In this document: positions 1,428 to 44,468 of the stretch, in pieces
Layout: every line of letters begins with the position of its first letter
Position numbering within the stretch: the first letter of the stretch is position 1
Assembly: GCA_016202305.1 (NCBI GenBank)
Contig: JACQPB010000039.1
Span: forward strand, 6,661 to 70,660
Direction: 5' to 3'
Length of the DNA stretch: 64,000 nt
Source of the DNA: Candidatus Iainarchaeum sp.
Lineage (GTDB): Archaea; Iainarchaeota; Iainarchaeia; Iainarchaeales; Iainarchaeaceae
Made by a program: the position numbers and the translations under genes
The notes under the pieces: generated by a model
The model's database searches: none
The model's input: only the letters and a program-made list of their open reading frames with translations
What the model was told of the DNA's origin: nothing

Positions 1428-2156
1428 ATGCCGCCGAAAATGCCGATGCACAGAAGGCCAGGCCTCAGGGCAAGGGTCGCATGGGGGATGATGAGCCTTG
1501 CAAGGCCGCGCGGCTTCGCGGGAAGGACGGCGATGCCACAGCGCCAGGCATTGCACATGGCGCGGGGCCGGGGCCTTGCCGGCACTATTTTGGGCAGCCT
1601 CTTCGGCATGGGCCGAAGCCGCGCGGAAATGCCCTCACGCATCCCCGAACATGGATTGAGAGAAGTGAACCTGGCGGGCAACCCTGAAAGCGAAATCGCG
1701 ATGAACATGCGGGCGCACGCGCAGATGCTTGAAGACGCGAAGGCAAGGGCCGCGAACGAAATGAAAGACCTGATGAACAGCCGCGGATTCCTGAAGCGCA
1801 ACCCGAACCTGCCGCGCGAGGCCGCGATGACCATTTTCGAGCTGAGGTACCTCTTCTTCACCGCGCTGCAAAAGGGCGACGTGAAGAACCTCAAGGAATT
1901 CCGCAGCCACCTCGCAAAATGGATAGGGAAAGCGAGGAGGAACCCGCAGAACCCTGAAGTCGCGGCCTTCCGGAACCTCCTGAATGCTGCGCAGAGGGAA
2001 GTGCCGGCAGAGCGCATGGCCGGAGCGCTCGGAATGAGCCTCGAGCGCTCGTTCGACCAGCGCGAAACCAAGGAGCTGAACGAAAGGATAATACCCAACG
2101 TGCTCAAGGCCAAAGAGGGAGAAAACCCCGGCGACGAAATGGCCACCACGGAATGA
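1428..2156 (+). CDS. hypothetical protein (242 aa)
   Basis: The C-terminal two thirds look like a normal charged, helical protein (…MLEDAKARAANEMKDLMNSRGFLKRNPNLPREAAMTIFELRYLFFTALQKG…). GTATATAAAGG lies about 35 nt upstream of the ATG. The antisense ORF 1379..2149 is S/R/L-rich junk. Confidence 0.45.
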   Translation: MPPKMPMHRRPGLRARVAWGMMSLARPRGFAGRTAMPQRQALHMARGRGLAGTILGSLFGMGRSRAEMPSRIPEHGLREVNLAGNPESEIAMNMRAHAQMLEDAKARAANEMKDLMNSRGFLKRNPNLPREAAMTIFELRYLFFTALQKGDVKNLKEFRSHLAKWIGKARRNPQNPEVAAFRNLLNAAQREVPAERMAGALGMSLERSFDQRETKELNERIIPNVLKAKEGENPGDEMATTE

Positions 2157-2223
2157 ACAGGCGACGGCAGGAAAATTGAAATGAGGGGGGAATTATATAG
2201 GGCTTTGGGCGTAATTGTTTTTC

Positions 2224-2442
2224 ATGGATGCTCGTGTAAAGGAGCTTGTTAGGGAAGTTTTAGATGAAATATGGTTAATCAGGGCCAGGAAGGCTAAAAT
2301 GCCAAGGTCTCTTGAGGAAGCAAAGGGCGATTTGAAGGATGCCTCACACATAGCAAACAGGCTTTACGGCTTTGGCCACCCGCAGCCCAAAGCCAGCGTA
2401 TTTCTCTCAGCAACCTTTTTAAAGCGTTCACCGGAAGAATAA
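2224..2442 (+). CDS. small hypothetical protein (72 aa from MDARVKE…)
   Basis: ORF with AATTATATAG about 30 nt upstream of the ATG, so possibly leaderless. No family recognised. Confidence 0.35.
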   Translation: MDARVKELVREVLDEIWLIRARKAKMPRSLEEAKGDLKDASHIANRLYGFGHPQPKASVFLSATFLKRSPEE

Positions 2443-2496
2443 TTGAGCCAGAAAAACGGCAATAAGGGCGTTTTTTGCGCATTTTAAGTGGTTTTC

Positions 2497-3267
2497 ATGG
2501 GACTGAGGCCAGGGCACTGCTATAACACTACAAAGGACAGGCCGTACACGAGGCATGCCGTCACGGTGCACAACAGGAACTACATAGGCGCGGTTCCGGG
2601 CCTGAGGACAAGGCAGTTCAACATGGGCGACGGCATGAAGCAGTTCGACACCATAATTGACCTCATAGCCGACACGGGGCCGCTAGGCGCGCAAATCAGG
2701 GACAACTCGCTCGAGAGCGCGAGGCTCATGATAAACAGGGCCATGATAAAGAAGGTCGGCAAGGAAGGATTCTTCATCAAGCTCAGGATTTACCCGCACA
2801 ACATACTTCGCGAGAACAAGCAGGCGCAGGGGGCGCACGCGGACAGGATACAGAAAGGGATGAGCCACGCATTCGGCAAGACAATAGGAAGGGCCGCAAG
2901 GATAAGGGACGGGCAGGTGATTTTCTCGTCGCTCGTGTTCGAGGCGGACGCCCAGAAAGCGATGGACGCCATGCTCATGGCAAAGTCAAGGTTCACGTGC
3001 AGAGTACACGTGCGCGTCGGCAAGGATGTTGAAAGCATAGGCACCAAGCCCAAGAAGACGAGGGACCTCATCAAGGAAGAGGAAGAGGCGAAGGCCGCGG
3101 CGGCCACGGGAGCGGCAACGGAAGGCGCGGCGGCACCTGCAGCTGAAGCCGGAAAGGAAGGAGCGAAAGGGCCTGCAGCGGGGGCCGCAAAAGCCCCGGC
3201 AGCGGCCAAGGCAGACGCGAAAGCCGCGGAAAAGAAGCCCACGAAGAAGGAAGAAGCGAAGAAGTGA
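2497..3267 (+). CDS. rpl10e: 50S ribosomal protein L10e/uL16 with a ~74-aa Ala/Lys/Glu-rich C-terminal tail
   Basis: N-terminus MGLRPGHCYNTTKDRPYTRHAVTVHNRNYIGAVPGLRTRQFNMG plus …YPHNILRENKQA…GADRIQKGM…, which are typical uL16(L10e) strings. The tail is KEEEEAKAAAATGAATEGAAAPAAEAGKEGAKGPAAGAAKAPAAAKADAKAAEKKPTKKEEAKK. Confidence 0.9.
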   Translation: MGLRPGHCYNTTKDRPYTRHAVTVHNRNYIGAVPGLRTRQFNMGDGMKQFDTIIDLIADTGPLGAQIRDNSLESARLMINRAMIKKVGKEGFFIKLRIYPHNILRENKQAQGAHADRIQKGMSHAFGKTIGRAARIRDGQVIFSSLVFEADAQKAMDAMLMAKSRFTCRVHVRVGKDVESIGTKPKKTRDLIKEEEEAKAAAATGAATEGAAAPAAEAGKEGAKGPAAGAAKAPAAAKADAKAAEKKPTKKEEAKK

Positions 3268-3303
3268 ATAGGAAGTTAATTGCTTTCCCACAACTGTTCT
3301 TGT

Positions 3304-4314
3304 ATGCCTGAACTGATTGTAGACCTCGCAGAGGCAAGGAAATTCCTGCAGGAGAAGGGCGCGGGCACATGCATAGTGCAGATTCCAGAGGGCCTCAAGG
3401 GAAAGACAACGTGGATAATCGACGAGCTGAAGGGAAGCTGCGACAATGTTTTCGTGAAGATGGACCCGTGCTACGGCGCATGCGACCTGCCACTGCACGA
3501 CATGAAGGCCCTCAACGCAGATGCGATAATACACATCGGGCACGGCCCGATACACCGCAACAAGAACATCTTATACATAACATGCCGGTATGACCTGAGC
3601 GAACAGGAAATAAGGGAAAACGCCAACCGCCTCCTCAAGGAGCTCGGCAAGCGCGGCGCGAGGAACATCGCGCTTATTGCGAACGCGCAGTACCAGCACG
3701 CCCTTCCGGCCCTGAAAAAAATCCTATTCGAGAACGGCATTGCGGCGCACATAGGGGCCGGCACGTCAAGGATAGCCTCGGAAGGGCAGGTGCTCGGATG
3801 CAATTACACGGTTGTAGAGAGCATACAGGCCGGCATTGACGCGAACGTGTACTTCGGCGACGGCCACTTCCACCCACAGGGCCTCGTTTTCAGCACGACA
3901 AAGCCCGTCATTGCCGTGAACCCGCTGCACGGCACGGTCGAGGAAATTTCCGAGAAAAACAGGGACAGGCTCATGCGGAAGAGGTTCGCGGCAGTGGCGA
4001 AAGCCAGCGAAGCCAAGAGCTTCGGCATAATACTCTCGGTCAAATCAGGCCAGAGGCAGAAGGAAAAGGCGCTGGAGCTGAAGAAGGCCATAGAGCGCGC
4101 GGGAAGGAAGGCATACCTCCTCGAAATGGACCTCGTGGTCGAAAGCTACATGGCCGGAGTGAAGGTGGACTGCCTCGTGAACACCGCGTGCAACAGGATT
4201 GTGCTGGATGATGCCGAGAACTGGAAAAGGTTAATTATAAATCCAACAGAGTGCCTAATAGCAATAGGCGAAAAGAAATGGGAAGAATGGAAGCCGGATG
4301 AATTCCTGCACTGA
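3304..4314 (+). CDS. dph2: diphthamide synthase subunit Dph2 (2-(3-amino-3-carboxypropyl)histidine synthase)
   Basis: IVQIPEGLKGKTTWIIDELK…VFVKMDPCYGACDLPLHDMKALNADAIIHIGHGP, plus length and architecture typical of archaeal Dph2. ATG at 3304 is preferred over TTG at 3280. Confidence 0.8.
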   Translation: MPELIVDLAEARKFLQEKGAGTCIVQIPEGLKGKTTWIIDELKGSCDNVFVKMDPCYGACDLPLHDMKALNADAIIHIGHGPIHRNKNILYITCRYDLSEQEIRENANRLLKELGKRGARNIALIANAQYQHALPALKKILFENGIAAHIGAGTSRIASEGQVLGCNYTVVESIQAGIDANVYFGDGHFHPQGLVFSTTKPVIAVNPLHGTVEEISEKNRDRLMRKRFAAVAKASEAKSFGIILSVKSGQRQKEKALELKKAIERAGRKAYLLEMDLVVESYMAGVKVDCLVNTACNRIVLDDAENWKRLIINPTECLIAIGEKKWEEWKPDEFLH

Positions 4315-4323
4315 GGTGATTGC

Positions 4324-4725
4324 ATGGCACGCCCTCAACCAAGAATTTCGGTAACACGCCGAACAGCGATTAGAAAGATTCAAAGAAAAATAAGCGAACT
4401 CAGGCCTATACCAAGCACAAGACGAAGGATTATAGCTGCACGCAGGAAGAAAATCCCAATAGGAAAGCAATTCAGGATAGAAAATGAGGAATTTATACTT
4501 GATGGCTATGGCCGAGCGTATCCACTTGCAAATCCAGAAACGCCACTCTCGACAATAATAGTGCCAACACCTCACTTGTCGGCCAAATTCAGGACATTTA
4601 TAGAATCGCCTAAAGGCAAGTTCATAGAAATCGCGAATGGAAAACTAAAGATGGTGTATGATGAAAACACCCTTGATACACTACATTTCTTTAAGGGCCA
4701 GCGCTACAAGGAACACTCTGACTGA
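4324..4725 (+). CDS. hypothetical protein (133 aa, Arg-rich N-terminus)
   Basis: ORF in a locally A+T-richer stretch. No family recognised. Confidence 0.4.
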   Translation: MARPQPRISVTRRTAIRKIQRKISELRPIPSTRRRIIAARRKKIPIGKQFRIENEEFILDGYGRAYPLANPETPLSTIIVPTPHLSAKFRTFIESPKGKFIEIANGKLKMVYDENTLDTLHFFKGQRYKEHSD

Positions 4726-4780
4726 CAATTGTAATAAAACCTAAACTTTCTGCGTGCCCCCCCACCCGAAAAAATCAAGT

Positions 4781-5701
4781 TCAAAAGTCTATATGATACG
4801 GGTTCGGCCTCTCGTAATCATCGTGCCCGCGCTGGCCCTTCCTCTTTTTCCTCTTCTTCACTGCACGCGGCTGCGCAGAAGCGGCATCATCCCCGGGCTC
4901 GGAGGTTTCCGGCGCGGAAACAGCGCCAATATCCCGAATCACTGTGCCAGTGAAGGCCGAGCCATTGATGTAATTCGAGAAATTCTGCATGTCATTGCCG
5001 TTAAGGACGACGGCCGGAATCCTGCTCCGCTGGAGGATGAGGCAGCAGGCGAGGTCGAGCACCACATTCTGGCCCGGAACCGAGCCGGCGGCAACAATGA
5101 GCGAAACGAGCTGGCCGTACCCTATCTCCTCAAAGCGCTTCGCACCGGCATTGTCGGCAGGGTTTGAATCATAGATGCCGTCAACATTCGTCAGGTTAAC
5201 GAAAACCGCGCCGAGGTGCTCCGCGAGCAGAGCGCCCACAGAATCCGTCGTAAAGAAAGGCATGATGCCGCCGAACACCGGGATTTTCCCAGAATCCAGC
5301 ACGGCGCTGGCGCGCGTGATGTCAGTGAGCACTTCCCTATGCGCGGAAGGAACGGCATTCGCGACAAGCATTGCGTTCGCGCGCGTGATGTGTATGCCGA
5401 GCAAATCAAGGCCGAAATTGTTCTGCGAAAACGAGCGCATTGCCTCGACATAATTGCGCGCGGCCCTGCCGCCCCCGACAACGAGAACGAAGCGCTTTCC
5501 GGAGGAATGGAGCGAGCTTATCATGTCAGCTATTGCGCGGATTTTTTCCGCATTTGGGCCGGCATCATCCGCAATCAGGCTGCCGCCTATCGAAACCACG
5601 AAAAGGCCGGAGGAAGAATCAGGCCTGTATGGCTGCGCCCTCCTGTCCATGTGCTCCTGCGCCTGCATTTCCTCATGCACAGTCTCGAAAATGTCGAACA
5701 T
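4781..5701 (-). CDS. pyrH: archaeal-type uridylate (UMP) kinase with a basic C-terminal extension
   Basis: LFVVSIGGSLI…GKRFVLVVGGGRAARNYVEAMRSF…LLGIHITRANAMLVANAV…PVFGGIMPFFTTDSVGALLAEHLGA (amino-acid kinase fold). The extra tail is …AVKKRKKRKGQRGHDDYERPNPYHIDF. Confidence 0.8.
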   Translation of the reverse strand: MFDIFETVHEEMQAQEHMDRRAQPYRPDSSSGLFVVSIGGSLIADDAGPNAEKIRAIADMISSLHSSGKRFVLVVGGGRAARNYVEAMRSFSQNNFGLDLLGIHITRANAMLVANAVPSAHREVLTDITRASAVLDSGKIPVFGGIMPFFTTDSVGALLAEHLGAVFVNLTNVDGIYDSNPADNAGAKRFEEIGYGQLVSLIVAAGSVPGQNVVLDLACCLILQRSRIPAVVLNGNDMQNFSNYINGSAFTGTVIRDIGAVSAPETSEPGDDAASAQPRAVKKRKKRKGQRGHDDYERPNPYHIDF

Positions 5702-35310: not shown

Positions 35311-36327
35311 TTATTTCCCGCCCTTCTTCTCCACCCCGGAAAGCGACTTCACTATCGGCGCGTACTTCCGGAAAAGCGATTCAAGGTCCTCATGCGAAAG
35401 CGCATTGCCCTTCGTCAGGGAGCGCGCAAGGTTCGTGAGCTCCATAGGGAAAATTATCTTGGTGCTGCTGCCCTCCCCGAGCTTCTCCAGCGCCTTCACG
35501 TAATAGTAGGCGAGCGTCTTGTCGTCAAGCTGCGCCGCCGCAGACCTCACCGCCTCTATTTCCGCCTGCTGTCCCTGGGCGCTCTCTATGCGCGCCAGCT
35601 TCTTCTGGATTGCGGCCTTTTGCTCATGCATCGCATCAAGAACGGTTTTTGGAATGTTAATGTCCTCTATCACCGCGCCCTCCACGGAAACGCCCCACTT
35701 GGTGGAAATCAGGGCCAGTTCCTTCTTGAGCGCATCATTCAGCTGCGCGACATTCGAAACAAGCTCGTTGAGCGTCATCCCGCCCGCCTTGTCCCTTATC
35801 ATGCCCTTCACAAACAGCACCGAAGCCTTCACCCAGTCGTCAATCTCCACGATACTGTTCGCGACGGAAGCGTTGTCCTTGTTCACTTTCAGGTAAATGA
35901 CGGCATCAATCTTCAATTCTATGCTATCCTTGGTGACAACATCCTGCGGGGGTATGTCTATGGTCTTCGTCCTCAAATCCACTTTCTCATGCCTCTCGAA
36001 AGGCGGGAAAACCAGCGCCCACCCCGGGCCGCCAACCCTGTTGAACTTGCCGAACCTGAAAACGACGGCCCGCTCATAATCGTTGAGCTTCAGCAGGTAT
36101 TCCATCCGCGAAGCGATTGCAAGCAGCACGATGAACAGCAGCGCAATGGTGACTTGAGGCGACAACAGCCTCGAACCGGAAAAAATGAGGTAAGCCAGCC
36201 CCGCAAGGGCAACCACCAAAACAAGGAAAATGCCCTGCTTCCTGTAGTCATCGGTCTCATGGCCATGCCCGGAATGCCCGCCCTCGTGCCCTTCCGCCCC
36301 TGAATGAGAATCCCCATGAGACGCCAT
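35311..36327 (-). CDS. SPFH/band-7 (stomatin/prohibitin-like) membrane protein with a His/Gly-rich N-terminus
   Basis: …YERAVVFRFGKFNRVGGPGWALVFPPFERHEKVDLRTKTIDIPPQDVVTKDSIELKIDAVIYLKV…. N-terminus MASHGDSHSGAEGHEGGHSGHGHE. Confidence 0.8.
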   Translation of the reverse strand: MASHGDSHSGAEGHEGGHSGHGHETDDYRKQGIFLVLVVALAGLAYLIFSGSRLLSPQVTIALLFIVLLAIASRMEYLLKLNDYERAVVFRFGKFNRVGGPGWALVFPPFERHEKVDLRTKTIDIPPQDVVTKDSIELKIDAVIYLKVNKDNASVANSIVEIDDWVKASVLFVKGMIRDKAGGMTLNELVSNVAQLNDALKKELALISTKWGVSVEGAVIEDINIPKTVLDAMHEQKAAIQKKLARIESAQGQQAEIEAVRSAAAQLDDKTLAYYYVKALEKLGEGSSTKIIFPMELTNLARSLTKGNALSHEDLESLFRKYAPIVKSLSGVEKKGGK

Positions 36328-36458
36328 CAAATCGCCAGACAACCAAAAAACGCTGTTCCTGCTATACACCACAGCCAGCAACCGCTCCACTACAATTATT
36401 ATATATAAATAAAGGCATATAAATAGGCTATCAAAGCCTAAAGCACGGACATGGTCAC

Positions 36459-37694
36459 ATGGAAAAGAAAGAGAGCATACTCGTTTTGTGCGTTGACAGG
36501 GACAACGACCTCGGAAAAAAGACCGGGATTCCGGGGCCCGTGATAGGCAAGGACGCCTGCATCAAGGCGGCAGCGAGGCTGGCCCTCGCCGACCCCACGG
36601 ACTCGGACTCGAACAGCATGTTCGGGGCGGTGAGGAAATATGAGGAAGTCAAGGAATACGCGGCCGCCGAAGTGGCCTTCCTGACAGGAGTGGGAAAAAC
36701 AGGCTTCGAATCCGACAGGAAAGTCTCCCAGCAGCTCGACATTGTCCTGGAGCAATTCCCCGCGACGGGGATAGCGCTCGTTACTGACGGGGCGGAAGAC
36801 GACGAAGTAATACCGATATTACAGGGAAGGGCCCCGATAGTTTCGAAGGAAACGATAATAGTTTCACAGGCTTCCGAGGTGGAGAGCACTTACTACACGA
36901 TAAAGCACGCCCTCCAGGACCCTGACTTCCAGAGGACATTCATATTGGTGCCCGGAATAGTGGTGCTTTTGTGGGGAATACTGGCATTCATGAATGCGCA
37001 GGAGCTCTTCTTCAGGAGCTTCCTCGTGGTGGTGGGAGCTTACCTTATCCTCAAAGGCACGGGCATTGAGGAGCGCATCGCAGGCGCAGTCTCCAGCGTT
37101 ACGAGCAGCATTTCCCTGCAGCGCGTCAGCTTCCCTTTTTACCTGATGACAATACTTTTCTTCATGTTCGGGGCATACGCATCTTTCGCCGAATTCAGCA
37201 TCCGGGACAGCAGCATAGTCTCCAGGATTTCCGAATCGGTGGGGCAGATGCTGCTCTTCCTCGCGCTCACGGCCATATCGTTTGTCGCGGGAAAAAGCGT
37301 CGACGCGATACAGCTCAAGCGCGCATACAACATCAGGAAGTATTTCCTCTCAGGCTCGGCGGTGCTCATACTCTGGTTCATACTCGACTCCGCGAGGCAG
37401 GTCATGGTCGGCAAGCCATACGCAGACATCACATGGTTCGCCACGAACGCAATCGCGAGCTTCATGCTCGGCCTCGCGGCATACAAGCTCTCACAGGCGC
37501 TGGACCTGAGCAAGAAAATAACGAAACTCCTTATAGGCCTCCCGGTCTATGCGAAGGACGGCAGGTGGATAGGCCTTGTGGAGTCAATCAACGCAAAGGA
37601 AAGCATAGAGTACAAGAACAGGCAGACCAACAAGACCGCAAAGCTGGAATCCGGCGACTTCGTGTTCAGCGAAGGAAGAATACTGATAGTGTGA
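36459..37694 (+). CDS. DUF373-family archaeal membrane protein
   Basis: N-terminus …ILVLCVDRDNDLGKKTGIPGPVIGKDACIKAAARLALADPTDSDSNSMFGAV… followed by multiple TM helices. Confidence 0.55.
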   Translation: MEKKESILVLCVDRDNDLGKKTGIPGPVIGKDACIKAAARLALADPTDSDSNSMFGAVRKYEEVKEYAAAEVAFLTGVGKTGFESDRKVSQQLDIVLEQFPATGIALVTDGAEDDEVIPILQGRAPIVSKETIIVSQASEVESTYYTIKHALQDPDFQRTFILVPGIVVLLWGILAFMNAQELFFRSFLVVVGAYLILKGTGIEERIAGAVSSVTSSISLQRVSFPFYLMTILFFMFGAYASFAEFSIRDSSIVSRISESVGQMLLFLALTAISFVAGKSVDAIQLKRAYNIRKYFLSGSAVLILWFILDSARQVMVGKPYADITWFATNAIASFMLGLAAYKLSQALDLSKKITKLLIGLPVYAKDGRWIGLVESINAKESIEYKNRQTNKTAKLESGDFVFSEGRILIV

Positions 37695-37817
37695 AAGAGG
37701 GCCAGAAATCGGCCATGGCCATTTGTGCTGCTACTCTCCGCAGTGGCTTCCTGCTTAGCCAAAAAGCATTCGCGCATGATGGCGGTCGGCCAAGCACAAG
37801 CACCCCTGAAAACGGCT

Positions 37818-39242
37818 TCACGCCGGCAAAACCTTGTTGCTAGGCAACTGCACCTTTGTACCCGACTCGAACTTCAGCAGCCTGCCGAGGCTCTTCAGCA
37901 AATCCGACTTGGCGCCAGTGTTCACGAAAGCGTTCTCAAGCACATCGGAAATGGTGGCGACTGGGATTACCCTTATGGCCTTCGCGGCATCCTCAGTCAG
38001 GACGACATCCTGCATATTCGAAACCGGGATTATGACTTCCTTGAAACCGGCCTTTATCGCCGCGGAAATCTTCGCTGTCACGCCCCCGACAGGAAGCACT
38101 TCGCCGCGCACGCTCAGCGAACCAGTCATCGCGAGGTTTTGCTTCACCGGAATCTTCTCAAGCGCAGAAACGACGGCTGTCGCGACGCTCACCGAGGCGG
38201 AATCGCCCTCGACACCGCTATAAGACTGGAGGAACTGTATGTGCAGGTCCTGCTTCGAGATGTCCTTGCCGGAAATCTTCTTTATGATGGCGGAAACGTT
38301 CTGGACCGCTTCCTTCGCAATCTCACCTAGCTTGCCTGTGGCTATCAGCTTGCCCTCGCTGCTTGACTGGGCCGGCGCAATCTCCGCCTCAATAGGCATT
38401 ATGAGGCCCGCGTCGCCGTCAGCCATCACGGCCAGGCCGTTCACGCGGCCCACGGCCGAACCCTCGCGCAGGTAAACGTCATAATCCTTCTTTTCGTCGA
38501 TTATCTTGGAAACCATCTGCTGCTCGAGCGTCTTCGCGGTCATCTTCGCCTCAAGCACATCCTGGCGCATCACAAGCTTGTGAGACTTCTCCACAGCGAT
38601 GTCACCCGCGGCCCTCACGATGCCGCCCAGGTCGCGCAACTTGAGCGTGAGCCTGCTCTTCCTGCCGGCGCGGCGCCTCGCCTCGAAAATTATTTCCTTC
38701 ACGGCCTCCATGTCAAAATGCGGAATCTTCCCGTCGTTCGTGACCTCCTGCGCCACGAACTGCACAATCCTGTTCCTGTTCTCTTCCGTGTCCTCCATGT
38801 CAAGGTTCATGTAGATTTCATACCCGTACCCGCGAATCCTGCTCCTCAAGGCAGGATGGACTTTTTCCAAATCCTCATAATTTCCCGCGGCCACCAAAAC
38901 AAAGTCGGTGGGAATTGGATCGGTCCGAGTCATCGCACCCGAACTCATCTCGCTCTGGCCCGTGATTGAATACTTCTTCTCCTGCATCGCGGTGAGGAGC
39001 TCCTGCTGGCTCTTCATGGAAAGCGTCGCAATTTCATCAAGGAAAAGCACGCCGCCGGAACTCTTGTGGATTAATCCCGGTTCAATGCGCAGGTGCGGTG
39101 GGGTCCCGAGGCCGCCGGAATTGTGGACAAGGATATCCTCGACGAAAAGATTGCCCGTCTCGGTAGTGACATTGTATACGTGGCCCCTGAAAGGGCGCTT
39201 ATGGACGGAAGTCACCTGCTCGTCTTTTGCCTTGAAATCCAT
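37818..39242 (-). CDS. lonB: LonB protease C-terminal fragment: 41-aa C-intein half plus C-extein (rest of AAA+ module and Ser-Lys protease domain)
   Basis: [41 protein letters not shown]|[30 protein letters not shown]…[10 protein letters not shown]…[23 protein letters not shown]…[14 protein letters not shown]…. Confidence 0.85.
39120..39242 (-). other. C-terminal half of a split intein (blocks F/G, …VHN followed by Ser+1)
   Basis: It begins at the ORF's own ATG (39242) and ends with AAT (Asn) at 39120-39122. The next codon, TCC (Ser), starts the conserved SGGLGTP. Confidence 0.8.
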
Positions 39243-39260
39243 GTTAGACTATTGGTTGCA

Positions 39261-39271
39261 AAATTATTAAA
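39261..39271 (-). promoter_or_regulatory. TATA-like box for the LonB C-fragment (possible leaderless transcript)
   Basis: On the minus strand, TTTAATAATTT lies with ~21 nt between the box and the ATG at 39242. No SD is visible. Confidence 0.4.
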
Positions 39272-39565
39272 TAGGTTGTATTGCGCCCTATGTTGGCGAT
39301 TTGTTGGCGGAAAAGGACAGGTGGAAGTGTAAAAAATGTGGCGTTGAGATAGGGGCCATAACCAGTATTTGCATGACGGAATGTGCGATGACTGCTTCTT
39401 CACGGAATATTTTCCGGAAGATGAAAAGGCACGCAGGAAAAGGCTTGTTATACTTCCGCATAAATAAAAATTGAAGGAATGTTTGCTTGCAAACTTATAA
39501 CAATGGCCGTTTCAATAATGGAACGTGTGTTTCAAGGCGGGAATAAATCAGGATACCGACACAAC

Positions 39566-39638
39566 TGGGAGCGGCAGGACTCGAACCTGCAACCCCTGCC
39601 ACATCGGGGCAGTGCACTAGCCATTGTGCTACGCTCCC
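39566..39638 (-). tRNA. tRNA-like gene with a canonical 73-nt cloverleaf; anticodon by position is GAU (Ile) but the anticodon loop is atypical (CCGAUGU)
   Basis: Hand fold: GGGAGCG-UA-GCAC-AAUGGCUA-GUGC-A-CUGCC-CCGAUGU-GGCAG-GGGUU-GCAGG-UUCGAGU-CCUGC-CGCUCCC-A. All stems are perfect. CCA is not encoded. Confidence 0.7.
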
Positions 39639-39651
39639 ACTCTAAATAAAC

Positions 39652-39984
39652 TTACAACCAGACGTTATTTGATAAGCCCAGCCTCTTCAACCTCGCCCTT
39701 GTTCCCCCGTGCCGCCCCTGCAATATTTTTGTGATTTCCTCTATCGTTTTTCCGGCATTGTACAAATCTGCGAGTTGTTTTTCCTGGGCATCGTCCCAGG
39801 GCTCGTATGCGTTTGGGGTTTCCTGCATGTCCCGCAGGGGCTTTTCATATGCAAGTTGCCGCTTCAATTTCAGGAGCAAATCCATATATTGCCTGAGATT
39901 TGCCCTGTTCTGCCGGCGTTGCCTGACCAGATACATTAGTTTGTTTTTGAGTTCACTCACTTTATCCACATTGCAATCGCCCAT
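39652..39984 (-). CDS. small protein with a C-terminal helix-turn-helix (110 aa)
   Basis: …WDDAQEKQLADLYNAGKTIEEITKILQGRHGGTRARLKRLGL (HTH pattern). It starts 4 nt after the LAGLIDADG ORF stop and ends 13 nt before the tRNA. Confidence 0.45.
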   Translation of the reverse strand: MGDCNVDKVSELKNKLMYLVRQRRQNRANLRQYMDLLLKLKRQLAYEKPLRDMQETPNAYEPWDDAQEKQLADLYNAGKTIEEITKILQGRHGGTRARLKRLGLSNNVWL

Positions 39985-39988
39985 TGGT

Positions 39989-41029
39989 TCAATTCGGCAC
40001 GACTTTTTGGCCAGTAGGGGGCAAGCCCATGTTGTCGTGCGGGTAGGTTGCCTCTTTCACTCTGCTCTCGAGCCTTTCCTTTTTGTCTTTGGCGTACCGC
40101 AAACCGAACTTTTTGTTGAATTTTATTACTTTTTCTCGATGAGTTTGGAAGAATATCCTGTAACAATAACTTGTGTGCCCATCCTTCCTTTGTGTTGGCT
40201 GGCATAATTCTTTTCTGAGGTTTGGCGTTGTGGCCAAGCCAACTTTGGCGCACAGCTGCTTTAGCTCCTGAAGGTATGCCCTATGCTCGTTTTCAAGCAT
40301 ATCAATTTTGCTCAAGCCTAAGGCAAAGTCTGTGAACCTCTTTGCCCAAGACCACCGGGGGTCGCCTCTAAACCGTGGAACGGAAACTTCCGAGGCAAGC
40401 AAGCCGTCAAGGAAAGCAATCTTCTTTGTGTACGCCAAACCAAACACGTACCTTGGCAAGGCATACTTTGTTGAAACTTTGCTTCCTACAGGAGCACCGA
40501 GAGCTGCAAAAAAACGAACAACTGCACGGTCATAACACCGGATATTCCATGAATGACCATATTCCCCGCCTTCTACAATCTGCGTTTTTCCTTCTGCAAA
40601 TGGAAAAATGCTCAGCAAATCGGAGTGCCACAGGTCAACATCCTTTTTGTCGGAAGAAATGAATGCAATCGTGTTGAAACGAATATCAATGCCGCCATCG
40701 CCAAACAAGGTGCCGAGGATATTGAAAATAATTTTGGAATCCTTGTGGATTTGATAGAACGGAAGCAAACCTGCATCTTTCAGTTTTTGGACAACTTTGA
40801 GAGGCAGCGGAATTGCGCGCTTTTCACCTTTGGTGTGCCACCAGCGGGTCATTCCGTTTTTTACTCCGAGAATCTTTGCGGCTTTCTTGTAGCCTATTTC
40901 GGGATTTTCAGCAATGAGCTTCTGGTACTCGAAGTATTTCTTGCAGGAAAATTGTTCCTCTGCAGAATATGTGTTGATTATGTCCTGTTCGGTTATAATG
41001 GGTTGCTTTACAACCATGCCTGCAATCAT
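39989..41029 (-). CDS. free-standing double-motif LAGLIDADG homing-endonuclease-like protein with an N-terminal HTH
   Basis: NILGTLFGDGGIDIR (motif 1) and KIAFLDGLLASEVSVP (motif 2). N-terminal …IGYKKAAKILGVKNGMTRWWH. ATG at 41029 (MIAGMVV…) is preferred over the 41149 extension. Confidence 0.75.
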   Translation of the reverse strand: MIAGMVVKQPIITEQDIINTYSAEEQFSCKKYFEYQKLIAENPEIGYKKAAKILGVKNGMTRWWHTKGEKRAIPLPLKVVQKLKDAGLLPFYQIHKDSKIIFNILGTLFGDGGIDIRFNTIAFISSDKKDVDLWHSDLLSIFPFAEGKTQIVEGGEYGHSWNIRCYDRAVVRFFAALGAPVGSKVSTKYALPRYVFGLAYTKKIAFLDGLLASEVSVPRFRGDPRWSWAKRFTDFALGLSKIDMLENEHRAYLQELKQLCAKVGLATTPNLRKELCQPTQRKDGHTSYCYRIFFQTHREKVIKFNKKFGLRYAKDKKERLESRVKEATYPHDNMGLPPTGQKVVPN

Positions 41030-41124
41030 TTCACAAACCCCCTCTTTAGAAGCAGATTGGTTCGTTTGCCCCTTGCTCGCAAAACAATTGCCAGTGACAG
41101 AAGATATATTGCTTTGCAGACAGG

Positions 41125-41137
41125 TCATTGCCGGTGC
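41125..41137 (-). promoter_or_regulatory. solo copy of the TnpB-IS left-end 13-mer (GCACCGGCAATGA on the minus strand) with a downstream A/T box, upstream of the LAGLIDADG gene
   Basis: The plus strand reads TCATTGCCGGTGC, identical to 11304-11316 and 56343-56355. It is followed (minus strand) by CCTGTCT…AATATAT at the same spacing as CCTCTCT…TTATAAG in the IS copies. Confidence 0.5.
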
Positions 41138-41139
41138 CG

Positions 41140-41286
41140 TCATTCCCAATCACCGCCCTCTGAAAAGTTTTTCAGAATCCAGAGCTCCCTGTCCGTCAGC
41201 TCCTCACCATTCTCGGCCGAGCGCACTGTCTCAATGATTTCCTCCACTGTCGGAAGAACTATTTTCAATTCTTTCAAAAACTCCAT
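41140..41286 (-). CDS. 48-aa acidic micro-protein (MEFLKELKIVLPTVEEIIETVRSAENGEELTDRELWILKNFSEGGDWE)
   Basis: Hand-translated. GGAGGTGG lies 5 nt upstream of the ATG at 41286. TGA stop at 41140-41142. Confidence 0.35.
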   Translation of the reverse strand: MEFLKELKIVLPTVEEIIETVRSAENGEELTDRELWILKNFSEGGDWE

Positions 41287-41290
41287 TCGA

Positions 41291-41437
41291 GCCACCTCCG
41301 GGAAAGGAATTTTTTCCGGAGATTTTTTTTCGCGGGCGGGGGCATTAAATCCTTTGCCCCTCCTCCGCGCATCAAGAGGGGGAAAGGTTTAAGCATCCCG
41401 ACCGCGCAAAATTCGGAAAAAATTCCGAGGAGGTGGC
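41291..41437. repeat. long-range inverted repeat (9 + 13 bp) that can pair the micro-ORF SD with an upstream anti-SD
   Basis: GCCACCTCC (41291-99) pairs with GGAGGTGGC (41429-37). GGAATTTTTTCCG (41306-18) pairs with CGGAAAAAATTCC (41414-26). Confidence 0.7.
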
Positions 41438-41497
41438 GAGAGTTTGAAATAAAGAGTTCTTCTCAAAAGAGGAATTCGAGGGGAAGAATTACTCCGG

Positions 41498-42529
41498 TCA
41501 TTTGGCAATTGCAAGCAATTGTTCCCTTATGAGTTTGATGAGCCTGTCGCCAGCAGAAATTTTTGCAGCCTCTTTTTCAGCATCGGAGACATCCACCTTG
41601 TGCTCGGGAGTGAGGGATATTTTCTTTTGGCCGAGGCTTATGTCCACGAGTTCGCCTTCGTGCGACCTCCTGTTCAAAGAAAGTATCCTCGAAAGCACCG
41701 GCTTGCCGTTTTTGTAGCCTAGAGTGTAAATCTTCTCTTCGGCAGGGAGCATTATCGCTTCGTATCCCTTCTCCACTTTGATTATTTCTTTCGGATATTT
41801 CTGCCTCATTTCGTCCCAAAGCTCTGCAAAGGGCTTTTTCATGAATTCAGGCGCGCTATTGCCTTCTTTTTTATTTTTGAGCTTTATATAAAGCTCATTG
41901 AAGCCATAATGGCACTGAAGCGGGTCATGCCTCACATCACCAAGCAGCGCTCCCGCCCTCGCCCCCGTGGCCTCGAAGAAAGGCGCAACCTTTTTGCCCG
42001 CGTTGTTGACGAGTAGCTTGGGGACCACGATGCCGACCTTCATGCGCATCTGCGACCCTAGCGCGAACCCAATCATGAGGAAGCCGCCGAGAATGAGGGT
42101 GGCCGCGTACACGACATCTGGGACAAGCTTGAGCGCCCATATCACGTAACTGAGGAGGAACCAGCCCATCGGCAGGATTATGCCGATTACGCGCATGTTG
42201 TCGTCCTGCGCCCTGCTCTCCAGCCTCGCCTGCTCCAGTATCCTCTGGCCATCGCCCGCCTTGACGGACTTCACGGCAGGATTGTTCTGGTCCTCGTCGT
42301 TCGGGTACACCAGCACGTCCAGGAGCTTCTGCACCGGCATTATCTCCGACATCGCCTTCGCAATCATCGACTTTCCAGTGCCCGGAAGGCCCACAAGAAG
42401 CACGTTCCTGCGCTGGACCGCCGCCTTCCGGATGAGTTCCGCGGCATTTTCCTGCCCGACAATCTGCTCGAGCAGAAGCTTCGGCACCGGAACATCCTTC
42501 GTGGAGGAAAGCTTGAGGAAATCAGGCAT
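41498..42529 (-). CDS. lonB: LonB protease N-terminal fragment: N-extein (Walker A plus membrane anchor) plus 138-aa N-intein half, ending in a stop
   Basis: …EQIVGQENAAELIRKAAVQRRNVLLVGLPGTGKSMIAKAM…, two TM helices, …FFEATGARAGALLGDVRHDPLQ|CHYGFNELYI…LVDISLGQKKISLTPEHKV…LLAIAK*. Confidence 0.85.
   Translation of the reverse strand: MPDFLKLSSTKDVPVPKLLLEQIVGQENAAELIRKAAVQRRNVLLVGLPGTGKSMIAKAMSEIMPVQKLLDVLVYPNDEDQNNPAVKSVKAGDGQRILEQARLESRAQDDNMRVIGIILPMGWFLLSYVIWALKLVPDVVYAATLILGGFLMIGFALGSQMRMKVGIVVPKLLVNNAGKKVAPFFEATGARAGALLGDVRHDPLQCHYGFNELYIKLKNKKEGNSAPEFMKKPFAELWDEMRQKYPKEIIKVEKGYEAIMLPAEEKIYTLGYKNGKPVLSRILSLNRRSHEGELVDISLGQKKISLTPEHKVDVSDAEKEAAKISAGDRLIKLIREQLLAIAK
41501..41914 (-). 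other. N-terminal half of a split intein (Cys1, block-B-like TPEH)
   Basis: Cys codon TGC at 41912-41914 directly follows the conserved DVRHDPLQ. There are 138 aa to the TGA at 41498-41500. Confidence 0.8.
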
Positions 42530-42716
42530 ATTTTATATACATCCCACACGGACTTAAATAGGTTGGTGGTGCAAGGGAAAAAAGCCCTGTGAGGCACACA
42601 CTTTGGGGCACAAATTTGACGGAGCTCTCACGCATTCAAGGCTTTCGGGAAACGTCAGTTACCCCATCCGCCCCCCGACGTCAGGCTTATATTCCACCCA
42701 ATTGTCAATTACACAT

Positions 42717-43466
42717 ATGAAACAAGGGCCTGTCAAAGGGCGGCGCTCGAACAGAGAGCGCATGTGGAAGCCCGGAAGATTCCAGTCAATGATTCCCGAT
42801 GAGGTTATGTACACTGCAGGAATCAAGGCGCTTGTCAGGCGCATGCAGGGAAGAAAGGCCGGAGGCCTAATAAGCGACTTTTTGCGTGCACGAAGAGGGC
42901 TGCGCGCAACAGGAGTGAAAATAGCGGGTGCCGGAAAGCTTGTAGTTGAAGACATAACCAACCGCGTGGATGGGTATACCGGAAATGCATTCTACAAAGT
43001 CACCCTCGGCAGGCGGTCATTTTTTGTCAAGGAGTATGAAAGGGGAAAGGCGCGCGAGAAACTCAGGCCCCAATATGACCTCGCTGCACAGCAGATGTCG
43101 GCCATGAGGGAGGCGAGCGCACTGATTGCAAAAGCCGAACTCCCCAATGTGGCCGTTGCGGAATACAGCCTCGGCTATACAGGGAAGACCCACTCGTGGA
43201 TTGTGAGCGACTTCTATGAGGGAGAAACTGTCGGGTGGGCAAGAGCGCATATCCCTAATGAAATCTTGCCTATAGAATCTGGCTCGCCTACAACTATTCC
43301 GTGGGCAAGAGCGCATATCCCTAATGAAATCTGGGTGCAGACGGAGCTTGCAACCTCCATTCTGAGGGCAAAGGGCTTTGTGGACGTCACAGCAGTTAAT
43401 ATGCTCTGGTGCCCGAAACTGGAAAAAATCGTCATTATCGATTTGCGCAAAGTCCGGCTTCCGTAA
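42717..43466 (+). CDS. hypothetical protein, possibly with a kinase-like fold (249 aa from MKQGPVKG…)
   Basis: …FYKVTLGRRSFFVKEY…, …WIVSDFYEGE…, …KIVIIDLRK… loosely recall small atypical kinases. It contains an internal 22-aa partial duplication. Confidence 0.4.
   Translation: MKQGPVKGRRSNRERMWKPGRFQSMIPDEVMYTAGIKALVRRMQGRKAGGLISDFLRARRGLRATGVKIAGAGKLVVEDITNRVDGYTGNAFYKVTLGRRSFFVKEYERGKAREKLRPQYDLAAQQMSAMREASALIAKAELPNVAVAEYSLGYTGKTHSWIVSDFYEGETVGWARAHIPNEILPIESGSPTTIPWARAHIPNEIWVQTELATSILRAKGFVDVTAVNMLWCPKLEKIVIIDLRKVRLP
43235..43332 (+). repeat. perfect 32-bp direct repeat 66 bp apart (in frame) inside the kinase-like ORF
   Basis: GTGGGCAAGAGCGCATATCCCTAATGAAATCT at 43235-43266 and 43301-43332. 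It encodes WARAHIPNEI twice. Confidence 0.85.
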
Positions 43467-43538
43467 CAGCCGTAGCCCCATCGCGCCGCGCTTTCATGCA
43501 GACAACCGGCGGCCATAGCTGTGTTTTTAATTCGTTAG

Positions 43539-44468
43539 ATGGAAAATCAATCCATGGCCGAACCCATAAAAATCGTCTTCCTCGGCACGAGCGCGAGCGT
43601 GCCAACGAAAGAGAGGAACCTCAGCAGCGTCGCAATCAGGTTCGAGGGCGAATGGCTGCTCTTCGACGCCCCCGAAGGCACGCAGAGGCAGATGATGATG
43701 GCCAAGACGAGCTACCTCAAGATAAACCACCTCTTCATATCGCACCTCCACGCCGACCACATACTCGGCCTCGGAGGCCTGCTCGCCACCATGAACATAC
43801 ACGGGCGCGACTGGCCGCTGACTGTATACGGCCCGAAAGGGATAGACGAAGCGGTAAGGGCCTCGACCGAACTCGCGATGCTCCAGCCCGGCTTCGAGGT
43901 GAAGTGCGTGCAGTCAAGGAAAGGGACCGTGCTCGAAACCGACAAGTTCACAATCTCTGCCGTGCCGCTCGACCACGAAATACCGTGCTTCGGCTACATT
44001 TTCACGGAGCGCGACAAGGCCGGGGAATTCGACAGGCAAAAAGCCGTTTCCCTCGGCATCCCGATAGGGCCGCTGTTCAGCGACCTGCAGAAAGGGAACA
44101 AGGTCAAGGTCGGCGGAAATACCGTAAGGCCGGAGGACGTCATGGACACATCCAAGGCGCGCAGGGGAAGGAAAATATCCATAATATTCGACACGCTCCC
44201 GTCGCAGGGCTACATGAAGGCGATAAAAGACTCGGACATACTCATACACGAATCCTCGTTCCTCAGCGACATGAAGGCACGCGCGGAGGAAACCAAGCAC
44301 TCCACGGCCCTCGACGCCGCAAGGGCCGCGAGGCAGGCGAAATGCAAAAAGCTCGTGCTGTTCCACCTCAGCGCAAGGCACAAGGAAAACGAGAAGTTCG
44401 AGAACGAGGCCCGCGAGGAATTCCACGACGTGACAGTCGCGAAAGACCTGATGGAGATGGATCTCTAG
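43539..44468 (+). CDS. rnz: ribonuclease Z (tRNA 3' endonuclease, metallo-beta-lactamase fold)
   Basis: IKIVFLGTSASVPTKERNLSSVAIRFEGEWLLFDAPEGTQRQM…INHLFISHLHADHILGLGGLL…. Confidence 0.85.
   Translation: MENQSMAEPIKIVFLGTSASVPTKERNLSSVAIRFEGEWLLFDAPEGTQRQMMMAKTSYLKINHLFISHLHADHILGLGGLLATMNIHGRDWPLTVYGPKGIDEAVRASTELAMLQPGFEVKCVQSRKGTVLETDKFTISAVPLDHEIPCFGYIFTERDKAGEFDRQKAVSLGIPIGPLFSDLQKGNKVKVGGNTVRPEDVMDTSKARRGRKISIIFDTLPSQGYMKAIKDSDILIHESSFLSDMKARAEETKHSTALDAARAARQAKCKKLVLFHLSARHKENEKFENEAREEFHDVTVAKDLMEMDL

Follow-up and report, generated by a model that had tools for sequence, protein, structure and literature searches.

How does a cell obtain a complete LonB protease from a gene that lies broken in two? 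The question is raised by a locus on the minus strand of a Candidatus Iainarchaeum sp. genome (GenBank GCA_016202305.1, contig JACQPB010000039.1, positions 6,661 to 70,660; this stretch of 64,000 nucleotides (nt) is hereafter the window), a member of the Diapherotrites (Iainarchaeota, DPANN), where two open reading frames (ORFs) about 2.25 kb apart encode the N- and C-terminal parts of LonB, each extended by a segment resembling part of an intein. We consider it very likely that this lonB is a fractured gene, in which a split intein joins the two products after translation and a detached endonuclease gene lies between the halves. Below, L-numbers designate related loci and P-numbers related proteins, lengths are in amino acids (aa), an arrow marks the splice junction, and dN/dS is the ratio of nonsynonymous to synonymous substitution rates. 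The parts that carry the argument are the following.

41915..42529 (minus): LonB N-extein, aa 1–205; TIGR00764 positions 2–199, E 5e-55; aligns to 3k1j and 4zpx
41498..41914 (minus): N-intein, 138 aa with Cys1 and block B TPEH, plus stop; profile match to solved inteins
41140..41286 (minus): 48-aa ORF (MEFLKEL...LTDRELWILK...); homologs directly upstream of the endonuclease; dN/dS 0.25–0.43
39989..41143 (minus): free-standing LAGLIDADG homing endonuclease, 384 aa; predicted fold and homologs
39120..39242 (minus): C-intein, 41 aa, own ATG at 39242; conserved (H/S/K)N↓S end and joined-profile alignment
37818..39119 (minus): LonB C-extein, 433 aa; TIGR00764 positions 190–605, E 7e-195; Pfam Lon_C 1.6e-33 and LonB_AAA-LID; aligns to 3k1j

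The two fragments together span an archaeal LonB

The upstream ORF (41498..42529, 343 aa) comprises LonB residues 1–205, followed by a Cys plus 137 aa and a stop codon. The extein part carries the Walker A motif GLPGTGKS and two hydrophobic/transmembrane segments, and its C-terminal end reads ...GDVRHDPLQ. The downstream ORF (37818..39242, 474 aa) opens with an ATG of its own; its first 41 aa end in ...ILVHN, after which LonB continues as SGGLGTPPH.... This C-extein begins with Ser+1 and contains the Walker B motif VLFLDE, the LID domain and a Ser protease domain that includes GDSAS. The TIGR00764 matches thus confirm the LonB parts that an earlier reading of the letters of this DNA (the preliminary description) had assigned to both ORFs.

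Joined in silico between Q205 and S42, the exteins give a protein of 638 aa that aligns to Thermococcus onnurineus LonB (3k1j, E 1e-223) without a gap over the junction, so the proposal that the exteins rebuild LonB holds. The fragments jointly span TIGR00764 positions 2–605 and display the hallmarks of archaeal LonB, an AAA+ module with an inserted transmembrane hairpin and a Ser-Lys protease domain. The insertion site, GDVRHDPLQ↓SGGLGTP, separates the Walker A motif of the AAA+ module from its Walker B motif; because these two motifs sit on different fragments, neither half can act alone. Public annotations of the fragments ('ATP-binding protein', 'hypothetical protein', 'sigma-54 interacting regulator') would therefore overlook an intact LonB in these genomes.

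Read along the minus strand, the order is N-extein, N-intein, a spacer of ~200 nt, the 48-aa ORF, the 384-aa ORF, a 110-aa ORF, a tRNA-like gene, a spacer of ~320 nt, C-intein and C-extein. The preliminary description had listed the same co-directional contents of the gap, namely the 48-aa ORF, the LAGLIDADG ORF, the 110-aa helix-turn-helix (HTH) ORF and the tRNA-like gene, and all four lie where it placed them. It had also called the gap A+T-richer than the exteins. The GC fraction is indeed 0.41–0.50 across 39200–41900 versus 0.56–0.61 in the exteins, but the low-GC stretch is wider than the gap, as it takes in the N-intein coding part.

The extra segments resemble the halves of one intein

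Profile comparisons support the assignment of the two extra segments as predicted halves of a single class-1-type split intein. The N-intein is encoded by 41914..41501, followed by the stop codon at 41500..41498. A profile of the N part alone matched the Mja KlbA intein in the PDB (8e-8), as well as VMA inteins and the Pab PolC intein. When N and C parts were paired by locus and joined, the match to Mja KlbA rose to 3.4e-13, with an alignment spanning both halves. Further matches of the joined profile were to the Pho RadA intein (8e-6) and, at 5.7e-6, to the NrdJ-1 split intein, where the alignment takes in the C-terminal ILVH-N/S block. These matches uphold the splicing domain that had been suspected after the N-terminal part of LonB.

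The residues expected to perform the chemistry are in place. Cys206 directly follows ...HDPLQ, and intein position 1 is always Cys or Ser, in the 27 relatives aligned as well as in 23 locus pairs. Block B reads TPEH without exception, both in the N-part alignment (n = 27) and in the joined one. At the other end, where the window reads ...LVHN↓SGG, the terminal Asn and Ser+1 are invariant among the relatives examined, and an (H/S/K)N↓S junction with the C-intein end is present in all ~35 loci. The halves are separate ORFs throughout: the stop after the N half and the ATG before the C half occur in all related loci. Contiguous LonB inteins share the block F/G sequence with the split form, which counts in favor of splicing because a contiguous intein has to be excised to leave a functional LonB.

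Net charges of the two halves followed no clear complementary pattern such as that reported for DnaE-type split inteins. A scan with Rfam of positions 36000–44000 revealed no known intron, riboswitch or other RNA besides the tRNA; splicing at the RNA level is thus unsupported, since no intron was found in this interval.

The endonuclease is a relative of the endonuclease domain of contiguous LonB inteins

The preliminary description had read the 384-aa ORF as a double-motif LAGLIDADG protein, and the fold agrees. An AlphaFold model built from 36 homologs (predicted local distance difference test (pLDDT) 86.6, predicted TM-score (pTM) 0.82) comprises a disordered leader (residues 1–45), an extra helical HTH-like domain (~50–125) and two LAGLIDADG motifs, LGTLFGDGG and FLDGLLASE; D149, E252 and K320 are invariant in the 36 homologs. 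Foldseek matched the model to I-Tsp061I (2e-7), to E-DreI/I-DmoI and to the endonuclease domains of TliVMA and PI-SceI. By its predicted fold, the product of 39989..41143 is a double-motif LAGLIDADG endonuclease, which presumably cleaves DNA; the candidate target is the empty site of L044, GATGTTCGGCATGACCCACTACAA↓AGTGGCGGATTAGGAACCCCGGCG. Comparison of the endonuclease profile with PDB sequences gave no match, and the sole NCBIfam match was to the intein part of RtcB_rel_intein (1.5e-16, far under the cut-off).

About 100 homologs were found, nearly all 320–390 aa long and free-standing, again in Diapherotrites, and every one of them sits in a lonB locus or is fused to LonB. Homologs of the 48-aa ORF lie immediately upstream of the endonuclease in L001, L004, L008, L009, L011 and L012; library scans assigned the ORF to no family. 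In the window its ATG is at 41286 and its stop codon (41140–41142) overlaps the endonuclease ATG (41143) as ATGA, an arrangement that suggests translational coupling.

An exhaustive N-intein profile search with inspection of the matches, together with the empty allele and the mapped loci, yielded seven states of this one insertion site, from empty to three pieces without an endonuclease:

Empty: P0107/L044 (...GDVRHDPLQSGGLGTPAHLR...), with the same synteny beside DUF373 and an N-extein 77% identical
Contiguous intein, endonuclease intact: P0284 (1159 aa) and P0313
Contiguous intein, endonuclease degenerate: P0298 (GNGN in motif 1) and P0306
Contiguous mini-intein: P0279 (837 aa)
Two pieces (P0223/L041, P0295): N-extein, N-intein and endonuclease in one ORF; C-intein ORF complete, with its ATG overlapping the stop of the first
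Three pieces, endonuclease intact: as in the window
Three pieces, endonuclease broken (L014, L028, L029, L035) or gone (L005, L006, L017, L023)

The window endonuclease, including its HTH-like domain, is collinear with residues 368–673 of P0284 (32% identity, E 4e-46). The end of the window N-ORF coincides with the start of this alignment, which places the break points at domain borders, and in L020 the distance from the N-intein to the endonuclease start amounts to a single in-frame TAA plus 22 codons. From the collinearity and the fused intermediates we conclude that fission of a bifunctional intein is the simplest reading: the intein appears to have split at its domain borders, and the endonuclease would be a detached piece of it. 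As all seven states are observed, the series documents how a bifunctional intein can come to be a split intein and a free endonuclease.

The published model for fractured genes runs in the opposite direction: a free-standing endonuclease invades a mini-intein and breaks it (Dassa et al. 2009, PMC2677866; also bioRxiv 10.1101/2025.01.02.630785, for phage non-canonical inteins). The contiguous mini-intein P0279 shows that a substrate for such an event was available at this very site. We nevertheless regard invasion as unlikely here. An unrelated invader is not what we see, given an endonuclease collinear with the inteins' own domain down to the HTH-like part and breaks at the domain borders; fused N-intein–endonuclease forms and the single-stop variant exist as well, and endonuclease homologs are confined to lonB loci and LonB fusions. 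Being the reverse of the invasion model, the fission series makes the debated relationship between inteins and endonucleases directly testable.

The empty lonB of L044 (1004..2895) is called as two ORFs of 466 and 128 aa, which suggests that the reading frame shifts, or that the sequence is in error, close to the protease domain. Further LonB inteins occur at other positions. An additional contiguous one lies ~71 residues into the C-extein in L009 (10337..12003) and at the same position in L013, L025, L028 and L032, with an endonuclease domain 25–29% identical to the free-standing one; P0272 carries another within the Walker A motif (GTGK↓C...HN↓S).

The split layout is clade-wide and under purifying selection

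The split lonB layout is clade-wide and not peculiar to this genome. A search with the N-fragment returned more than 110 clusters of ~330–390 aa at 95–100% query coverage and down to 50% identity. Those with names are labeled 'Candidatus Diapherotrites', 'ainarchaeum' or 'archaeon', and an identical protein is encoded on a 71-kb contig of a Diapherotrites metagenome-assembled genome (MAG). All aligned relatives of the N-fragment end 25–35 residues past block B. Scanning species-representative genomes for the C-intein junction identified 35 loci, mostly Iainarchaeum, ainarchaeum or plain 'archaeon'; the other labels are Woesearchaeota (1), Forterrea (1), three contigs of one Micrarchaeota-labeled MAG and two bacterial bins. 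The last two, L016 and L017, were deposited under Chloroflexi bacterium and Candidatus Falkowbacteria labels, which are probably binning errors.

Mapping by tblastn placed N-extein/N-intein, endonuclease and C-intein/C-extein on one strand, with a gap of 1.1–4.7 kb, wherever the contig was long enough. The order with a free-standing endonuclease between the halves, which the preliminary description had likened to fractured genes, is kept in about 25 loci. For the best-conditioned pair, L024/L026 (dS 0.3–1.6), the endonuclease and both intein halves have dN/dS values like those of the exteins: N-intein 0.081, endonuclease 0.080, C-intein 0.095, exteins 0.086 and 0.098; other pairs give 0.02–0.15 for the intein halves. 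By part, the ranges are 0.08–0.12 (N-intein), 0.02–0.15 (C-intein) and 0.06–0.10 (both exteins). The frameshifted endonuclease of L014 has a value of 0.32.

Low dN/dS together with conserved catalytic residues argues against two other readings. In the first, the intein halves would no longer splice and would persist as high-affinity, non-covalent docking domains that hold the LonB fragments together. There is precedent for such assembly, as phage Aeh1 NrdA fragments are reported to be held non-covalently through mobile-element remnants (PMC3045599), and the reading gains from an atypical block F (YN..GN for YD..HN) and from relatives in which Ser or Lys replaces the penultimate His. Docking alone, by contrast, leaves unexplained why residues needed only for chemistry (Cys/Ser1, the block-B Thr and His, the terminal Asn and Ser+1) are kept across more than 50% sequence divergence, or why contiguous LonB inteins, whose splicing is indispensable, share this block F/G. 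We judge it quite unlikely.

In the second reading, the locus is a decaying pseudogene, a contiguous Lon intein with acquired stops, while LonB function has disappeared or comes from a second copy. Other broken genes occur in the reduced genomes of DPANN archaea, and the endonuclease is clearly decaying in L014, L028, L029 and L035. Yet an identical stop position and restart ATG recur in more than 100 clusters and in 35 species, dN/dS remains at 0.06–0.10 in the exteins and 0.08–0.13 in the intein halves, and no second lonB occurs in the 64-kb window or in the ~20 kb around each related locus, a search that did not extend to whole genomes. With purifying selection and the splicing residues intact, decay, which the preliminary description had named as a possible refutation, is very improbable. 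An assembly or binning artefact with a chimeric 2.25-kb insert, which it had named as well and which the metagenomic origin of the window might suggest, has a negligible chance of being correct, as more than 30 independent assemblies (NCBI, ENA, JGI, Logan) show the same part order with differing gap contents.

Several observations nevertheless weigh against a split intein joined after translation and a detached endonuclease. Single-sequence hidden Markov model (HMM) scores for an intein fall below threshold (Pfam Intein_splicing E 0.22, NCBIfam intein_Nterm E 0.019), and a single-sequence structure model of the joined halves reaches a pLDDT of only 37. The penultimate C-intein residue is variable (H, S or K), and block F has Asn and Gly/Asn where many inteins carry Asp and His. 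The endonuclease matches no Pfam family, including the LAGLIDADG models. The limited range of the search for a second lonB belongs here too, as does the fact that we infer trans-splicing, endonuclease cleavage and the promoters alike from sequence.

A proposed route from three genes to one protein

We propose that the intein has been broken into three co-oriented genes: LonB-N with the N-intein, the endonuclease with its coupled 48-aa ORF, and the C-intein with LonB-C, the last having its own putative promoter and ATG. The break between endonuclease and C-intein would have come first and that between N-intein and endonuclease second. The LonB fragments would be made separately, and the 138-aa and 41-aa intein halves would then associate into one HINT fold. 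Trans-splicing through a Cys1 acyl shift, attack by Ser+1 and Asn cyclization would release the 638-aa LonB. The endonuclease, in turn, may cut intein-free lonB at the junction, so that repair copies the entire cassette, along with any gap cargo, into a new genome. The gap itself would now behave as intergenic space that gathers passengers, here the HTH gene and the tRNA-like gene.

Of the 29 loci informative for the endonuclease, about 21 retain it intact and constrained, 4 carry a broken copy and 4 have none. L044 shows that the clade also contains empty sites. N-intein and N-extein similarity are uncorrelated (Spearman 0.07, 190 pairs): L009 and L011 share 86% identity in the extein and 43% in the intein, while the window and L024 share 64% and 65%. 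This fits continuing homing or recombination of the element but is not proof of it, and unequal rates, instead of transfer, might account for part of the missing correlation, a further point on the opposing side.

Relation to known split inteins and fractured genes

Fractured genes were described by Dassa et al. 2009 (NAR 37:2560, PMC2677866) for gp41-1, gp41-8, NrdJ-1 and IMPDH-1. LonB resembles these in having two extein–half-intein ORFs on one strand, a free-standing homing endonuclease between them and a break at the canonical endonuclease insertion point, and homology of the joined LonB halves to the NrdJ-1 intein can be detected (5.7e-6). The earlier cases, however, are phage-like DNA-metabolism genes from marine metagenomes with Vsr-like endonucleases, whereas LonB is a chromosomal archaeal protease gene with the intein's own LAGLIDADG domain. 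LAGLIDADG is nowhere mentioned in PMC2677866, which reports intervening regions of hundreds of bases and proposes endonuclease invasion as the origin; the LonB gaps measure 1.1–4.7 kb and hold cargo, the layout is clade-wide, and the intermediates point to fission.

The closest archaeal parallel is the split PolB intein of Nanoarchaeum equitans (Waters 2003 and Choi 2006, both cited in PMC2677866). There, too, a DPANN archaeon depends on a natural split intein for an essential gene, whose protein is made only by trans-splicing. Its halves lie far apart in the genome with no known endonuclease, in what is a single-genome case, whereas the LonB halves are adjacent and co-oriented, retain the endonuclease and are found in many species. 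The cyanobacterial DnaE split intein is likewise lineage-wide and vertically maintained in an essential gene; its host is bacterial, its halves are unlinked and no endonuclease is known to remain.

Contiguous LonB inteins reside in the same host protein as single ORFs and splice in cis. Ten of them, from Euryarchaeota only, were compiled by Novikova et al. 2016. The metagenomic contiguous inteins P0284, P0298, P0306 and P0313 occupy the same site, DP(L/F)Q↓SGGL, and their N-splicing, endonuclease and C-splicing parts are homologous to those of the split form. As for the endonuclease itself, it shares with I-DmoI/I-Tsp061I and the PI-SceI/TliVMA domains the double-motif fold (Foldseek probability 1.00, target-normalized TM-score 0.58–0.71) and the acidic residues of both motifs. 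It differs from them in its low identity (11–18%), in its extra N-terminal HTH-like domain and in being neither intron-encoded nor intein-embedded.

We found no prior description of a split LonB intein, for Lon or for DPANN archaea, in the open-access literature searched; the subscription literature was outside this search, and an earlier description there is possible. A fractured gene with a split intein is known, whereas the host gene, domain of life, endonuclease family, phylogenetic breadth and inferred origin are new. As far as we could find, this fractured gene is without precedent in three respects: it lies in a cellular archaeal chromosome, it is a protease gene instead of a gene of DNA metabolism, and its endonuclease belongs to the LAGLIDADG family. 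The family would be a large one of natural split inteins, apparently not described before. Such inteins, from which tools for protein ligation are developed, are few; more than 100 diverged pairs would be gained here, from hosts that are apparently mostly non-thermophilic environmental archaea. Both Cys1 and Ser1 occur among them, the junction has Ser+1, and the 41-aa C-half hardly varies.

A conserved hairpin and promoter-like signals in the gap

Two candidate regulatory features flank the gap genes.

41290..41440 (minus): long hairpin or imperfect inverted repeat of ~150 nt, conserved, between the N-fragment stop and the 48-aa ORF; RNA fold and covariation
39254..39280 (minus): box resembling a B recognition element (BRE) and TATA element, caacctatttaataattttgcaa, 12–37 nt ahead of the C-fragment ATG

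The hairpin has a fold energy of -77.9 kcal/mol (z -5.8) and matches no Rfam family. In an alignment of 6 loci, standard pairs occupy 94.6% of pair cells, compared with 40–57% when the partners are slid, and nine compensatory pairs have both sides changed, compared with at most 2 in slid versions; none of 500 shuffles reached the score. L004, L014, L016 and L026 share the inner stem as well, and L015 has a compact version. In the outer stem, GCCACCUCC, resembling an anti-Shine-Dalgarno (SD) sequence, pairs with the SD-like GGAGGUGGC 7 nt before the ATG of the 48-aa ORF, while the 5' arm holds a T6 tract and the inner stem includes the TATA-like GGATTTAATGC. We conjecture that the hairpin terminates or insulates the lonB-N transcript and masks the ribosome-binding site of the endonuclease operon in read-through RNA. 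The element GCAAAGGATTTAATGCC, considered as a BRE/TATA promoter of this operon, is retained only tentatively, being also an arm of the conserved stem.

Upstream of the C-fragment, the TATA-like box noted in the preliminary description proved to be conserved: tgcaacctatttaataattttgcaa recurs nearly identically, at equal distance to the ATG, in seven related loci (L001, L005, L006, L009, L011, L012, L013) and may be the promoter of a leaderless C-fragment mRNA. The C-fragment has its own ATG in every locus, 30–45 codons before the (H/S/K)N↓S junction. Since genes on the reverse strand occupy the gap in L001, L004, L005 and L043, a single translated unit is ruled out, and the two LonB fragments are probably transcribed separately.

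A third copy of the hairpin arm motif lies at 39404..39418, between the tRNA-like gene and the C fragment (GGAATATTTTCCGGA, versus GGAATTTTTTCCGGA at 41306..41320); the copies could be a shared protein-binding site.

Passengers in the gap and neighboring genes

The remaining genes of the gap are lineage-specific passengers outside the system.

39652..39984 (minus): 110-aa ORF with a C-terminal HTH; PHROG 323 'transcriptional regulator, D5-like', E 1.6e-5, residues 53–106
39566..39638 (minus): tRNA-like gene with anticodon GAU (Ile); ARAGORN Ile-GAU; Rfam RF00005, 64.8 bits

Among the loci, the HTH ORF has its only homolog in L008, at the same position and with 34% identity. The tRNA-like gene forms a cloverleaf with four perfectly paired stems and an intact T-loop. 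Its anticodon loop reads CCGAUGU, with C33 and G37. U33, and A37 beside anticodons that read ANN codons, are near-universal, and such a loop is unexpected for a decoding tRNA-Ile; it lacks the U33 and A37 of an elongator tRNA-Ile(GAU). One other copy, degenerate and with the same anticodon loop, was found among ~40 loci (L005, 2700..2771). It has an A5×C68 mismatch and the T-loop UUUGAGU, and its 3' 21 nt are duplicated at 2830..2850 in a locus that has lost the endonuclease; the duplicated 3' end might be an att-like remnant. Metagenome and viral collections contained no copy of this odd tRNA, a search with its 3'-half pattern retrieving nothing but tRNA-Met genes of bacteria and tRNA-like sequences, all unrelated. 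Direct repeats that would betray a recent insertion of the HTH/tRNA segment were not detected when the gap was analyzed for repeats.

Other genomes hold other cargo at this place, so the gap is best seen as ordinary intergenic space between two essential half-genes. A gene for a Zn-dependent phospholipase-C-like protein of ~227 aa lies co-directionally between endonuclease and C fragment in nine loci and may hitch-hike with the cassette; it is found in L009 (8884..9564), L006 (two copies), L008, L011, L015, L018, L021, L027 and L034, with none in the window. The gap of L030 (~1900..4900) contains a diversity-generating retroelement, composed of an Lcl_C target with an Asn-rich C-terminus, bAvd and a reverse transcriptase, and a cassette homologous to it by sequence is present at ~7200..9950 of L035. 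Further cargo in related loci includes an AAA_14/DUF4143 ATPase, an Ldh_2 dehydrogenase and proteins of unknown function.

A far-reaching joint reading would have a still-mobile cassette, more than a frozen selfish element, kept throughout a phylum-level DPANN lineage, with a selected, hairpin-controlled endonuclease, ferrying of cargo and trans-splicing as regulated assembly of LonB, an essential membrane protease. Taken as a whole this is doubtful; if it were true, the cargo moved between genomes would include the phospholipase-C-like gene, the diversity-generating retroelement and the tRNA-like gene.

Between the tRNA-like gene and the C fragment, a 57-aa ORF on the plus strand (39301..39474) encodes a CxxC motif (WKCKKCG) and may not be a gene; neither it nor the minus-strand ORF 39288..39461 matched a family. 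Beyond lonB-C, a gene for a DUF373 membrane protein (36459..37694, plus strand) adjoins it convergently. This synteny is kept in L001, L004 and L044, and the gene can serve as an anchor for the locus.

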